DNA of 64,000 nucleotides from Candidatus Kaiserbacteria bacterium (lineage in GTDB: Bacteria > Patescibacteriota > Minisyncoccia > Phycocordibacterales > UBA2100): assembly GCA_028286585.1 (NCBI GenBank), contig JAQBRI010000005.1, forward strand, positions 13,973 through 77,972, written 5' to 3'. Positions 47,935 to 52,990 of this stretch are shown piece by piece. Under the pieces are notes generated by a model, which was given only the letters and a program-made list of their open reading frames with translations, searched no databases and was not told the DNA's origin. Within the stretch, counting starts at the first letter, position 1; every line of letters starts with the position of its first letter. A program made the position numbers and the translations under genes.

Positions 47935-49599
47935 TTATGAACGATTGATCACAAGTCGTGGTACCCCACCGACTGTTTCCATGGTCATTGAGTCACCTTT
48001 TTGAGTAACCGCTACTGGTGTAGCTACTACTGTTGGTGCAACAACTGGCTGTACAGGAGTTGTAATAGCCTTTGCTACAAAGTTAACTGGCTTTACCGGC
48101 TTGTATCCCTTGATAGCTTGCGTTGCGAGTCGAGCAGCGCCACCGTTCATATACACGATAAGGTATGCGCCAGAGACAGCAAAGAGTCCGAGAGCAAACC
48201 AGTAGATTGAATTTCCAAGAACTCCGAAATCAAAACCGGTATAAGGGATTTGAGAGAGTGAAATTGCTGCAACATTGTTTCCAACATTGATGTTCACACT
48301 ACAATTTGAAGTTTGTCCGTTCGAGCTAGTGATAGTAAGCACGTAGTTGGTTGAACTGTATGGATGCACGGTCAACGTACCTGTTGTGTTTACATTTCCA
48401 ACTCCCGAGAGTGAAGCGTAATTTGCTCCAGTTGCAGCCCACGCAAGTACTGTTGAATCACCACTACGAACTGATGTTCGAGTCGCACTGATGTAACAAG
48501 CAAATGCCTGATTGTTGATGTACTGCACTGGCTGTGAGTAGATCGGTGTAACAACGTTGTTGTTATTATTGTTATTGTTGATCACAACTGGGTTGTATGA
48601 ATTCGAGTTTTGGTACGAGTATCCTGGGTATGAAGTGTATACGATCGGTTGCGGGTAAGTATTTCCACGGCAGTTTGGATAGACACCAGTAAGACCCTGT
48701 TGCGCACATGTTGGTACCGGTTGTGGAGGGTATGAACAGTGTGGGTATGTTCCGATCATGCCTTGCTGCACACAGGTTGGAATTGGTTGCTGTGGGTAAG
48801 TAGGGTATGAGGGATATGAAGGAGTTCCAGGGTATGTTGGGTACGAAGGCGTTGAAGGTCGTGAAGGAGTACTTGGGTAACTCGGTGCGTATTGCACTGA
48901 TGATCCCTGTGCTATTGAGTAACCTTGTGAAGAGTAGCCCTGTGAACTTCCGTAACCGCTTGAGTAACTACTGCCATATGATGGAGAGTAGGAACTATCG
49001 TACGATGGTGAGTATGAGCTGTCGTATGACGGTGAGTAAGAAGAATCGTATGAAGCCGTATATGAAGAATCATATGATGGAGAATACGCAGAGTCGTACG
49101 ATGGACTGTATGCACTATCGTACTGAGGTGAATATGATGAGTCATATGATGGTGAGTACGCTGAATCATATTGTGGAGAATACGATGAATCGTATGATGG
49201 AGAATACGAACTATCGTAAAATGGTGAGTATGAGGAATCATACGACGGAGAGTATGAACTGTCGTAAAATGGTGAGTACGAAGAATCATAAGAAGGACTG
49301 TATGAAGAATCATACTGTGGAGAATATGAAGAGTCGTATGACGGACTGTATGATCCACCGTAACTTGGTGAATATGAGGAATCGTATCCCCCACTGTATG
49401 AGCCTGAGTAGTCAGACACATCACCACAACAACCCTCGTCAAATTGTGCATTTGCAATTACCGGCATTACTGATGTAACAACAGTAAAAGCTGCCACAAT
49501 GAATGCGATTCGTGAACTTTGTATAAAATTTGTCATATGATTTTTTTCTAATTCGCACGTAATAATTAACTGCTTACTAATTTTGAGGAGTAAAAACAA
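47935..49599 (-). CDS. cell-surface repeat protein, paralogue 1 (20 tandem DSSYSPSY repeats, Asn8 tract, Ig-like domain, C-terminal IPYTG–TM–basic tail)
   Basis: The product has a signal peptide (start probably MTNFIQ at nt 49536). It has perfect 24-nt periodicity across about 480 nt, then QGYSSQGYSIAQGSSVQYAP and a P/Y-rich linker. The shared C-terminus is LSQIPYTGFDFG + hydrophobic helix + YMNGG + basic residues. Confidence 0.6.
   Translation of the reverse strand: MFLLLKISKQLIITCELEKNHMTNFIQSSRIAFIVAAFTVVTSVMPVIANAQFDEGCCGDVSDYSGSYSGGYDSSYSPSYGGSYSPSYDSSYSPQYDSSYSPSYDSSYSPFYDSSYSPSYDSSYSPFYDSSYSPSYDSSYSPQYDSAYSPSYDSSYSPQYDSAYSPSYDSAYSPSYDSSYTASYDSSYSPSYDSSYSPSYDSSYSPSYGSSYSSGYGSSQGYSSQGYSIAQGSSVQYAPSYPSTPSRPSTPSYPTYPGTPSYPSYPTYPQQPIPTCVQQGMIGTYPHCSYPPQPVPTCAQQGLTGVYPNCRGNTYPQPIVYTSYPGYSYQNSNSYNPVVINNNNNNNNVVTPIYSQPVQYINNQAFACYISATRTSVRSGDSTVLAWAATGANYASLSGVGNVNTTGTLTVHPYSSTNYVLTITSSNGQTSNCSVNINVGNNVAAISLSQIPYTGFDFGVLGNSIYWFALGLFAVSGAYLIVYMNGGAARLATQAIKGYKPVKPVNFVAKAITTPVQPVVAPTVVATPVAVTQKGDSMTMETVGGVPRLVINRS
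48924..49410. repeat. coding tandem repeat array, about 20 copies of a 24-nt unit (encodes D-S-S-Y-S-P-S-Y with Q/F/A/G variants)
   Basis: Visible in the translation: YDSSYSPSYDSSYSPFYDSSYSPSYDSSYSPQYDSAYSPSY. The nucleotide units are imperfect (synonymous variation). Confidence 0.7.
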
Positions 49600-49705
49600 C
49601 TGTTGCTATTATATCAGATAACTGATCATTGTCAATAGGTGGAATAAAAGTATTTTGGCGTCGGCAACATTGGAGTTGCCGACGCACTTTTCTCATTTTT
49701 TTTGC

Positions 49706-50176
49706 TCAGTGAGCCGGTACCGAAGGGTGCCCGGGTCCCCCGCACGCCTCGACGCCCAAAAGGCACGCGAGTGCCGGTGAAGTGTTACCGCGGCCGGACA
49801 AAATCGGATTGATTTCCGAATCGCCTGTCAGCAGCACACTGTGTTCCGAACACAGATACACGTCGTCGGGTTTTCCGCCGCCATGCATCCAGTAGTTTTG
49901 CGGATAGCAAAACTGCCCTTGTGCCGATGGAATCGTCTTCGCGTCGCGTATGACTTCCTTGCCTTTTCGCGAAACGATGATTGTGACATTCGCACCGGCC
50001 GAAGGCAGGACGAAGTTCACGCACACCAGAGGTTTTGTGGTCGGACGAGGCGCGCGAGGCTTTGCATGCTTATACAGCATACAGAGTTCGTCGCAGTCTG
50101 CGGGCAAGCTGCGAGCTTCTACAGTAGCGGGAAGCCACAGCAGAAACATGCTAATGAGAAAGTAAAAGATCTTCAT
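49706..50176 (-). CDS. small secreted Cys-containing hypothetical protein (156 aa) in GC-rich island
   Basis: The product has a signal peptide (MKIFYFLISMFLLWLPATVEA) and 8 Cys. An AAGGAGGG RBS is present. Local GC is about 65–73%. Confidence 0.45.
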   Translation of the reverse strand: MKIFYFLISMFLLWLPATVEARSLPADCDELCMLYKHAKPRAPRPTTKPLVCVNFVLPSAGANVTIIVSRKGKEVIRDAKTIPSAQGQFCYPQNYWMHGGGKPDDVYLCSEHSVLLTGDSEINPILSGRGNTSPALACLLGVEACGGPGHPSVPAH

Positions 50177-50207
50177 GGCCCCCTCCTTGAGTTGTTCGCC
50201 GAATGGC

Positions 50208-50254
50208 GAATTCGTGAGTGCCTGGCTGACATCAATATCTTGATATCAATCAGG
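50208..50254 (-). promoter_or_regulatory. conserved 5' leader / operator-like element, copy 1
   Basis: GAATTCGTGAGTGCCTGGCTGacATCAAtatcTTGATatCAATCAGG lies 30–75 nt upstream of the start codon. It contains the inverted repeat ATCAA-N4-TTGAT and is about 80% identical to copy 2. Confidence 0.45.
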
Positions 50255-51344: not shown

Positions 51345-51535
51345 GTGTAAAAGACCTCCGTTGTGCCTGTTCGGGTGAACTAGGCTTGGGTTCTAGAGAG
51401 ATGAATATCTCCCCAGCTAGTACAATGATAGCATGCAAGAGCCGTTTTGTCAAGCCCCTGTACCATCGCACCTAAAATAGGTGTACCACACTATAAACAC
51501 AAAAACCACCCCTTTCGAGATGGTTTTTGCTGACC

Positions 51536-51577
51536 TTATTTTGGAGTCTTTGAGTGCTGGACCACGTTTGACGTGGG
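51536..51577. repeat. conserved 3'-flank element copy 2 (ttattttggag…CCACGTTTGACGTGG hairpin)
   Basis: See copy 1. A further weak hairpin plus a tttgtgttt tract follows, as in paralogue 1. Confidence 0.55.
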
Positions 51578-51586
51578 GCGGCGGCT

Positions 51587-52990
51587 TTAGACTCGCTTAG
51601 GGACAAATCGTGTGATTCCCCCGTTCATGTAGATAACCAAGTACGCGGCAGATGCAGCAAAAAGTGCAAGAACTGCCCAGTACGCGATATCGCCAAGAGT
51701 TCCCAAATCAAATCCGGTATAAGGAATCTGATCAAGCGCAATGTATGGTGCAGAATTATTTGCAACTGTGCCGTTCGTTACATATTGCGTATATGTTTGC
51801 GCTGGAGTGTAAGACGGAGTTACAACATTGTTGTTGTTATTATTGTTGTTGATAATAATTGGACTTCCATTCTGGAAATTTGTTCCGCCGTACACTATTG
51901 GTTGTGGCTGTGGGTACGGCTGATTGTGTTGCATTTGCACCACAACCTGACACGTTCCATGAGATCCGTTAGTACCAGTTACTGTAAGTGTGAATGTTCC
52001 CCCGCTTGTTGTAACTACTTGTGTGCCCGAGAGTGCTACGCGACCAGATCCTGACGCTGCAGAAAGTGATGCAATCGTTGCGTACTGCGAATTCCAGGTA
52101 AGTGTCACTCGCTGATTTGCGGCTGTGATGTACGAAGGATTGGCACTGATGGTACACGAAGGAGTGTAAACAGGAGTTGGTTGAGGTTGAGGTTGAGGAT
52201 ATGTTGGGTACGTAGGGTAACTTGGGTACGAAGGTGTTGCTGGATAACTTGGATTACTTCGAGCCGGTGCGTATTGCACTGATGATCCCTGAGCTATTGA
52301 GTAACCTTGTGAGGAATATCCCTGTGAAGATGAGTATCCTTGTGACTGTGTGTATCCACCACCTGTCGCCTGCTGATATGCAGGATTTACGAAACAGGTT
52401 GAACAATTTGAAGGATTGTATTCTCCAATTATCTGACCCGTTGATGGATCGTACTGTCCAATCACCATTCCGGTGGACGGATCATACTGACCAATTATTG
52501 TGCCAGTCGATGGGTCATATTGACCGATTACTGTTCCAGTAGATGGATCAAATTGACCAATAACACTTGGGTCATACTGACCGATTACTGTGCCTGTCGA
52601 TGGATCAAATTGACCGATCACCGAAGGATCGTATTGTCCTATTACAGAACTATCATTATATGATCCGTAGTCATAGCCTGTGTTATACCCAGTATCAAAT
52701 GAGCCTGAGTCGTAACCAGTGTTATAACCTGAATCGAAGTTTCCATAATCGTACCCGGTATTATAAGAATCATTGTTGTATGATCCGTAGTCGTAGCCGG
52801 TGTTGTATGAACCAGTATCAAATGATCCTGAGTCATAACCAGAGTTATATCCCGAATCAAATGAACCTGAGTCGTACCCTGCGTCATACTGTGCGTGCGC
52901 TAATGCTGGCATTGCAACAAACGAGACTGACATAATAAACACGCCAACTGACATTGTTACGTTTTGAAACACTTGTGTAATAGATTTCAT
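51587..52990 (-). CDS. cell-surface repeat protein, paralogue 2 (GYDSGSFDTGYNT and VIGQYDPSTGT repeat blocks, Asn8 tract, Ig-like domain, C-terminal IPYTG–TM–basic tail)
   Basis: The product has a signal peptide. It shares with paralogue 1 the blocks QGYSSQGYSIAQGSSVQYAP, IINNNNNNNNVVTP, LDQIPYTGFDLG and YLVIYMNGG. It ends …GGITRFVPKRV. Confidence 0.6.
   Translation of the reverse strand: MKSITQVFQNVTMSVGVFIMSVSFVAMPALAHAQYDAGYDSGSFDSGYNSGYDSGSFDTGSYNTGYDYGSYNNDSYNTGYDYGNFDSGYNTGYDSGSFDTGYNTGYDYGSYNDSSVIGQYDPSVIGQFDPSTGTVIGQYDPSVIGQFDPSTGTVIGQYDPSTGTIIGQYDPSTGMVIGQYDPSTGQIIGEYNPSNCSTCFVNPAYQQATGGGYTQSQGYSSSQGYSSQGYSIAQGSSVQYAPARSNPSYPATPSYPSYPTYPTYPQPQPQPTPVYTPSCTISANPSYITAANQRVTLTWNSQYATIASLSAASGSGRVALSGTQVVTTSGGTFTLTVTGTNGSHGTCQVVVQMQHNQPYPQPQPIVYGGTNFQNGSPIIINNNNNNNNVVTPSYTPAQTYTQYVTNGTVANNSAPYIALDQIPYTGFDLGTLGDIAYWAVLALFAASAAYLVIYMNGGITRFVPKRV
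52405..52882. repeat. coding tandem repeats of paralogue 2 (two different approximately 33–39-nt unit families)
   Basis: Visible in the translation: (GYDSGSFDTGYNTGYDYGSYN)x3-4, then (VIGQYDPSTGT)x7. Confidence 0.6.

Follow-up and report, generated by a model that had tools for sequence, protein, structure and literature searches.

A conserved IPYTG tail in repeat-rich surface proteins of Kaiserbacteria as a probable sortase sorting signal with a non-canonical extension

Introduction

Which proteins does the sortase of a Kaiserbacteria lineage act on, and can its substrates be recognized from their C-termini? The question is raised by a 64,000-nucleotide stretch of a Candidatus Kaiserbacteria genome (assembly GCA_028286585.1, contig JAQBRI010000005.1, positions 13,973 to 77,972), referred to here as the window. 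It encodes a membrane-anchored sortase and two repeat-rich surface proteins, paralogues 1 and 2, which end in a shared tail consisting of the pentapeptide IPYTG, a hydrophobic helix and basic residues. Sortases are encoded by more than half of the bacteria of the Candidate Phyla Radiation (CPR) (Méheust et al., 2019, PMC6744442). Literature searches on IPYTG, on sortase substrates in CPR bacteria, Parcubacteria or Patescibacteria, and on Kaiserbacteria surface proteins recovered no description of a substrate or motif. From the sequence comparisons reported below we consider it probable that the IPYTG proteins are substrates of the Kaiserbacteria sortase and that IPYTG is a lineage-specific form of the LPXTG motif.

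Results and Discussion

Two surface proteins with a shared tail

Translation of the window yielded two minus-strand open reading frames (ORFs) of 554 and 467 aa, each with IPYTG, FD(F/L)G, a hydrophobic stretch and basic residues, in agreement with an initial annotation made from the DNA letters alone (Table 1). That annotation placed the pentapeptide of paralogue 2 correctly and that of paralogue 1 one base off, at 48234-48248. Both proteins carry a P/Y-rich spacer, a run of eight asparagines and a single immunoglobulin (Ig)-like domain bounded by two cysteines. The order of these elements had been given as Asn8 followed by the Ig-like domain in both; this holds for paralogue 1, whereas in paralogue 2 the Ig-like domain precedes Asn8 and the tail. 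Both N-termini have, by inspection only, a hydrophobic secretion signal (ending ANA-Q and AHA-Q, respectively). A fold search with the C-terminal model recovered only generic Ig, fibronectin type III (FnIII) and PKD-like neighbors for the Ig-like domain.

Low-complexity sequence makes up most of both proteins, and BLASTP similarity between them is confined to the tail (55% identity over 62 aa). At the nucleotide level, the paralogues share 88% identity over a stretch of 75 nt (48883-48957 and 52265-52339), much more than elsewhere in the two genes; the stretch encodes QGYSSQGYSIAQGSSVQYAP, within which lies the segment SQGYSSQGYSIAQGSSVQYAP common to both, and suggests local gene conversion or strong constraint. 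Outside the tail and this stretch, the paralogues are alike in architecture and not in sequence.

Table 1. Positions of the two IPYTG surface-protein genes, their elements, and the sortase and CARDB genes, numbered from the first letter of the window.
Feature	Position	Strand	Description
Paralogue 1, long-tail IPYTG surface protein	47935-49599	-	Maximal ORF of 554 aa from TTG
Paralogue 1, probable start	49534-49536	-	ATG; MTNFIQSS…VIANA-QFDEG; 533-aa product
Paralogue 1, signal peptide	49447-49536	-	
Paralogue 1, tandem repeats	48946-49410	-	About 18 x 8 residues, YDSSYSPS type, 24-nt period
Paralogue 1, Ig-like beta-sandwich	48283-48504	-	Cys at either end; AlphaFold2 pLDDT >93
Paralogue 1, IPYTG	48235-48249	-	Center of invariant V-S-L-S-Q-I-P-Y-T-G-F-D-F-G; from translation
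Paralogue 1, membrane helix	48151-48222	-	VLGNSIYWFALGLFAVSGAYLIVY; AlphaFold2 and family-wide sequence conservation
Paralogue 1, extreme C-terminal beta-hairpin	47941-47994	-	DSMTMETVGGVPRLVINR; conserved, predicted cytoplasmic
Paralogue 2, short-tail IPYTG surface protein	51587-52990	-	467 aa
Paralogue 2, signal peptide	52892-52990	-	…PALAHA-QYDAG
Paralogue 2, two repeat arrays	52409-52891	-	39/123-nt and 33/57-nt periods
Paralogue 2, Ig-like domain	51938-52156	-	
Paralogue 2, IPYTG	51713-51727	-	From translation
Paralogue 2, membrane helix and basic end	51590-51688	-	Helix IAYWAVLALFAASAAYLVIY; 13-residue basic end MNGGITRFVPKRV (R, K, R); canonical tripartite layout
Peptides spanning the IPYTG site			SLSQIPYTGFDFG; SLSQIPYTGFDFGVLG
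Membrane-anchored sortase, candidate processing enzyme	30281-31162	-	PF04203
CARDB-domain protein, N-terminal membrane anchor	31259-32245	+	Divergent from the sortase

The tail module defines an unannotated family

When the last 189 aa of paralogue 1 were used as a seed, six proteins were recovered, all with SLSQIPYTGFDxG and the helix, and all with a long extension ending in PR(L/I)V(I/V)xR(S/N/A). An exhaustive profile search of the tails against 1.84 billion representative proteins extended this to 699 protein clusters at E ≤ 1e-3 and 283 at E ≤ 1e-10, nearly all matching over the full profile and at the extreme C-terminus. IPYTG was exact in 148 of the 153 best matches inspected. Among 262 distinct tails, a set that had been selected on PYTG, the residues P, Y, T and G were invariant and position 1 was isoleucine in 98%. 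Conservation in these tails covers a near-invariant core of about 45 residues, which begins with V-[SA]-L-[ST]-Q-I-P-Y-T-G-F-D-[FL]-G-x-x-G-N and continues through the helix as x-x-Y-W-x-x-L-x-x-F-A-x-A-x-A-Y-L-x-V-Y-Y-[RK]-G-G.

Full-length members share the architecture of the two window proteins and differ in their repeat units (for example GGWDSYDSY, NDFQPYA and GSFDGGY). All are named "hypothetical protein" with no Pfam domain recorded, and our own Pfam and NCBIfam scans of the window proteins, ten full-length relatives and isolated tails returned no meaningful family. Scanning 185,579 species, each represented by one genome, for QIPYTGFD yielded 96 confirmed hits at 77 loci, labeled Kaiserbacteria, Paceibacterota, Parcubacteria, Patescibacteria or related metagenome-assembled genome names. 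We take the tail to be an unannotated, lineage-wide family of Kaiserbacteria-type Parcubacteria, whose members, as read from their sequences, begin with a Sec signal peptide, followed by hypervariable acidic/aromatic tandem repeats, a spacer rich in S, Y, P and Q, at least one Ig-like domain and, at the C-terminus, an anchoring module.

The ectodomains are unusual in their lysine content. Neither paralogue has a lysine in its ectodomain (about 400 residues each; 48250-49446 and 51728-52891), arginines number only three or four, and the mean lysine content of the window ORFs is 4.8%. Across 201 full-length family members, 108 ectodomains have none (mean 0.34%), unlike the cytoplasmic tails, in which lysine and arginine contents are normal. 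Avoiding amine nucleophiles or trypsin-like proteases could explain the absence of lysine.

Paralogue 1 also contains two copies of a Cys-bounded loop, C-x(3-6)-G-x-x-G-T-Y-P-x-C (48600-48800), which is expanded into long tandem arrays in short-tail relatives adjacent to a sortase gene (L112 and L147). These loops are probably disulfide-stapled spacer modules.

A sortase gene accompanies the IPYTG genes

The sortase of the window matches PF04203 (E = 1.7e-18; 67 bits against a cut-off of 26.6), and the catalytic residues His203, Cys273 (in TLVTC) and Arg282 are invariant in 27 orthologues, which bears out the earlier description of an intact enzyme. No other ORF in the window combines an LPXTG-type motif with a hydrophobic tail, also as described. 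In its structural model, a disordered stalk of about 100 residues connects an N-terminal membrane helix (aa 22-43) to a catalytic beta-barrel (aa 150-292). The stalk (aa 55-142; 30737-31000) is rich in S, T, Q and N and is longer here than in most orthologues, which have 215-260 aa in total. The barrel superposed best on class A housekeeping sortases (3rcc, template modeling score 0.78-0.83), with classes D, E and C scoring almost as well, such that the fold search does not separate the classes. The best PDB sequence match was Bacillus anthracis SrtA (2kw8). Ddl, MurB and two SLT-type transglycosylases are also encoded in the window, indicating that the organism makes peptidoglycan.

Comparison of gene neighborhoods by tblastn, using the window genes against the 77 IPYTG-centered genome loci, revealed a recurrent order: pheT, gyrB, a CARDB-domain protein gene on the opposite strand, the sortase gene, a variable interval of 2-7 kb with genes for small proteins that are secreted or membrane-bound, the IPYTG gene or genes, an aminoacyl-tRNA synthetase gene and dnaE. 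A sortase orthologue was present in 49 of the 77 loci overall, and this share rose with the available upstream flank, to 44 of 51 loci where 5 kb or more were available and 32 of 35 where the flank reached 9 kb. In these 32 the sortase lay within 10 kb of the IPYTG gene. The initial annotation had allowed that the tail might prove to be a widespread membrane anchor in homologues lacking any sortase; the observed linkage does not bear this out.

The linkage was also observed in the reciprocal direction. A metagenome scan seeded with the sortase alignment gave 80 loci, all close relatives (59-79% identity), and in 16 of the 19 sortase-centered loci with at least 7 kb of downstream sequence a long-tail IPYTG gene was found 2-8 kb downstream. 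Moreover, in 11 loci (L016, L030, L071, L088, L089, L090, L103, L112, L124, L147 and L155) the sortase gene is immediately preceded on its own strand by a short-tail IPYTG gene, with a gap of 4-66 nt or a slight overlap; in another (L087) the distance is 295 nt. A short-tail gene directly before the sortase is the classic sortase-substrate arrangement. A regular-expression survey of about 1.2 Mb of related loci, for any xPx[TSA][GASN] with an uncharged 18-residue stretch after it, returned the IPYTG family as the only recurrent signal, along with single variants VPYTG, LPYTG, MPYTG and TPYTG. SPYTG and APYTG ORFs just downstream of some sortase genes were rejected as candidates, being P/Y-rich secreted or polytopic proteins in which the motif is not C-terminal and no anchor follows.

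The divergent pairing of CARDB and sortase genes is kept in 38 of the 77 related loci, and the CARDB-domain protein may be a functional partner of the sortase. Directly downstream of the sortase of relatives there is often a gene for a secreted protein of about 190 aa with Y-P-x-x-V or A-x-P-V-D-V repeats (17 loci; for example L080 1418-1987, L083 2056-2472 and L024 4134-4709). These proteins have no C-terminal anchor and are absent from the window.

Long and short tails and their predicted structure

Within the 77 genome loci, 103 ORFs carry [IVLMT]PYTG followed by a helix, and they fall into two forms. In the long form (84 of 103), 80-150 residues follow the motif; here a variable linker joins the invariant core of motif and helix to a conserved beta-hairpin at the very end (DSMxxxxxGxPRIVIxR). 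In the short form (19 of 103) only 36-74 residues follow, and several subtypes have conserved endings of their own (FAREVAxAARNQ…VRS and …KIDxxRGA). Paralogue 1 is the standard form of the family and paralogue 2 the minority form. The roughly 50 residues beyond the basic stretch of paralogue 1, which had at first been regarded as an imperfect fit to a sorting signal, are the family norm.

Paralogue 2 was considered as a truncated long-tail gene and rejected as such, as no PRLVI-type remnant was found downstream in any frame and its orthologue P0115 has the same short tail, ending in …YMNGGVSRFVKRA. Because the short-tail paralogues keep the motif and the helix and drop the hairpin, motif and helix appear to be the common functional unit.

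An AlphaFold2 model of the last 189 residues of paralogue 1, based on a 30-sequence alignment, predicted an Ig-like sandwich at residues 1-75 (predicted local distance difference test, pLDDT, >93), a membrane helix at 95-118, a short helix at 122-132, a disordered linker and a beta-hairpin at 171-188 (pLDDT about 70). IPYTG falls in an unstructured, low-confidence stretch (block 81-90, pLDDT 52), and about 5-8 residues separate its glycine from the start of the helix. The model would put the motif on a flexible linker close to the outer face of the membrane, as expected of a sortase site, and the conserved hairpin is predicted on the cytoplasmic side.

How well the tail fits a sorting signal

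Both paralogues have a pentapeptide with P at position 2, T at position 4 and G at position 5, and position 1 is I, V, L, M or T across the family. A hydrophobic membrane-spanning segment closely follows the motif. The short basic C-terminal end of a typical sorting signal is present in paralogue 2 and the other short-tail ORFs and absent from paralogue 1 and the long-tail majority. A sortase gene is found in the neighborhood, in the window as well as in the well-flanked loci.

Together these features fit a model in which the membrane helix and the basic residues behind it would stop transfer and keep the exported protein in the membrane, with the invariant IPYTG displayed on the flexible segment of about 20 residues that links the last folded domain to the helix. 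The membrane-anchored sortase of the lineage would then cut between threonine and glycine and move the ectodomain onto a peptidoglycan precursor. The piece left by short-tail members such as paralogue 2 would be a sorting-signal remnant of the ordinary kind; that left by long-tail members such as paralogue 1 would keep the conserved cytoplasmic linker and beta-hairpin, and the hairpin would presumably act before or after cleavage, in targeting, quality control or signaling.

Several observations weigh against this interpretation. The tails, which the initial annotation had proposed to compare with sorting-signal hidden Markov models, matched neither TIGR01167 and its NCBIfam variants nor PF00746, as full proteins (E ≤ 1) or as isolated tails (E ≤ 10); the sole signal was LPXTG_double at E = 0.068 in one relative from L112. 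Conservation runs past the pentapeptide into FDxGxxGN and the helix (YW..L..FA.A.AYL.VYY.GG), and since the hydrophobic part of classical signals is not conserved in sequence, the conservation of this helix is atypical. A discarded remnant is also unlikely to stay as conserved as the hairpin of the 84 long-tail members. NCBIfam sortase class models all scored below their cut-offs (class E, 41 bits against 160; TIGR01076, 33.8 against 39.35), so the specificity of the enzyme is not readable from its class. The sortase linkage is embedded in housekeeping synteny (pheT-gyrB-…-dnaE) of one narrow lineage, its loci are not independent, and some of the association may stem from gene order passed down by descent and not from a functional link. 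In the window, the sortase and IPYTG genes are 17 kb apart, because the conserved block is rearranged there. What the analysis establishes is the architecture, the conservation across the family, the predicted topology and fold, and the genomic linkage; that the tail is cut, what accepts the ectodomain in the wall and whether the tail has a role are inferences. The initial proposal of a sortase signal is sustained in its [I/L]PxTG fit, tether position, signal peptides and sortase linkage, and is at odds with the long tail, the conserved helix and the curated models.

The conserved FDxGxxGN, helix and hairpin are foreign to classical signals and suggest that the module is more than a cleavage mark. 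We tentatively propose, as a reading with less than even chances, that the module of about 110 residues works on both sides of the membrane instead of being discarded like a sorting signal. Once the sortase has cut, the hairpin of the membrane-retained fragment might report on or organize surface-protein anchoring from inside the cell; alternatively, some of the protein might remain uncleaved and physically tie the outer surface layer to a partner in the cytoplasm. For an ultra-small CPR bacterium that depends on a host, a transmembrane link of either kind would be unusual.

Alternative explanations

The main rival to sortase processing is that the proteins are uncleaved type I membrane anchors. 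In that case the QIPYTGFDxG-helix would be a juxtamembrane and transmembrane interaction element, involved in partner packing or oligomerization, the hairpin would couple to a cytoplasmic partner, and the likeness to LPXTG and the proximity of the sortase would be incidental. Such an anchor explains conservation well: the helix is conserved in sequence with small-residue faces, FDxGxxGN is conserved, the cytoplasmic tail ends in a conserved predicted beta-hairpin, and several short-tail subtypes have cytoplasmic motifs of their own. The unmatched sorting-signal models and a sortase linkage lying inside housekeeping synteny are likewise in line with it. However, it leaves unexplained the invariant P-x-T-G at the canonical distance from a helix, in an unstructured tether, as well as the direct adjacency of short-tail and sortase genes in 11 loci, and it would leave a conserved sortase with no visible substrate. 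We regard uncleaved anchoring as unlikely.

It is improbable, in our view, that the motif is a site for another enzyme, or that the sortase acts on it to an end other than wall anchoring, for example hydrolytic release of the ectodomain or polymerization into fibers. Isoleucine at position 1 is typical of pilin signals, and the sortase stalk, at about 100 disordered residues, is unusually long, both of which would suit such a role. Against it, no exosortase, archaeosortase or rhomboid-type gene was found among the conserved neighbors, and the tails matched none of the exosortase, archaeosortase or rhombosortase sorting domains in NCBIfam, nor any other C-terminal sorting-domain model. Lysine-mediated, pilus-type polymerization was rejected for the two window proteins on account of their lysine-free ectodomains. 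The weakest explanation, a pentapeptide shared by chance or artefact between proteins of mostly low complexity, is refuted with near certainty by the hundreds of clusters recovered at either E-value threshold and by the near-invariant stretch of about 45 residues.

Other features of the window

The region between and beyond the two IPYTG genes differs in composition from the rest of the window, with a G+C content of 53-58% at 50000-51500 (the spacer between the paralogues) and 53000-55500 (beyond paralogue 2) compared to about 45%. It contains small signal-peptide ORFs without Pfam domains (49706-50176, 50793-51344 and 53145-53660), few of which have counterparts in related loci, and looks like a variable island of secreted proteins. 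A 59-nt direct repeat (50208-50266 and 50684-50742, 80% identical) containing the palindrome TTGATATCAA is found 30-90 nt upstream of two small signal-peptide ORFs on the minus strand (49706-50176 and 50336-50650) and may be a promoter or operator common to both.

Two further large secreted proteins are encoded on the minus strand at 11960-13447 and 9352-11955. One of them was considered for a sorting signal and rejected, as it ends in a helix, a basic stretch and …NLPTGMPTGQSF, with LPTG after the helix. The other has a Peptidase_S74 (endosialidase chaperone) domain, typical of phage tail fibers.

Implications

If the IPYTG proteins are indeed sortase substrates, they would provide a defined substrate set and a recognizable signal for one CPR lineage that current annotation misses, and would probably be a major wall-anchored surface component of Kaiserbacteria. 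With their hypervariable distal repeats and lysine-free ectodomains, they are candidates for contact with a host or with particles. Whether sorting-signal remnants can carry a function is a question posed by the conserved cytoplasmic extension, and an enzyme specific for IPYTG could offer a new sortase/peptide pair for protein ligation.

Comparison with known systems

The closest known counterpart is the LPXTG signal of Gram-positive bacteria and their housekeeping sortases (TIGR01167/PF00746), with which the IPYTG proteins have in common an N-terminal signal peptide, [L/I]PxTG, a helix and basic residues, a sortase encoded nearby and few substrates per single enzyme. They differ in having fixed residues, Ile and Tyr, at positions 1 and 3, in conserved flanks (VSLSQ…FDxGxxGN) and a sequence-conserved helix that lack a classical counterpart, in the further 60-110 residues ending in a hairpin that most members carry, and in being found in a CPR bacterium. 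Since curated models do not match and the majority of members have no short basic end, we do not file the family as a plain member of the LPXTG signals.

Isoleucine at position 1 is accepted by known sortases, as in the IPQTG of the pneumococcal pilin RrgB. Signals of this type, handled by class C sortases, resemble the tail in this residue and in having substrate genes beside the sortase gene. In contrast, the IPYTG ectodomains have no lysine or recognizable pilin motif, and the sortase has no clear class C affinity. The IPQTG-type pilin motif is treated in PMC5640630.

For a retained fragment with a function, there is a precedent in Streptococcus gordonii, where, according to the summary in PMC11326707, the C-peptide left in the membrane by sortase A is sensed by a two-component system. 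As summarized there, that remnant of cleavage between threonine and glycine is a short, ordinary sorting signal, whereas the remnant considered here would carry a dedicated, conserved cytoplasmic domain.

The PEP-CTERM/exosortase, PGF-CTERM/archaeosortase, GlyGly-CTERM/rhombosortase and MYXO-CTERM/myxosortase systems are likewise restricted to lineages and consist of a module of motif, helix and basic residues, definable by a hidden Markov model, that is paired with one enzyme. The IPYTG tail differs from them in its LPXTG-like motif and in the linked enzyme, which is a sortase. Measured against these systems, the module probably works most like an LPXTG sorting signal, with a non-canonical extension.

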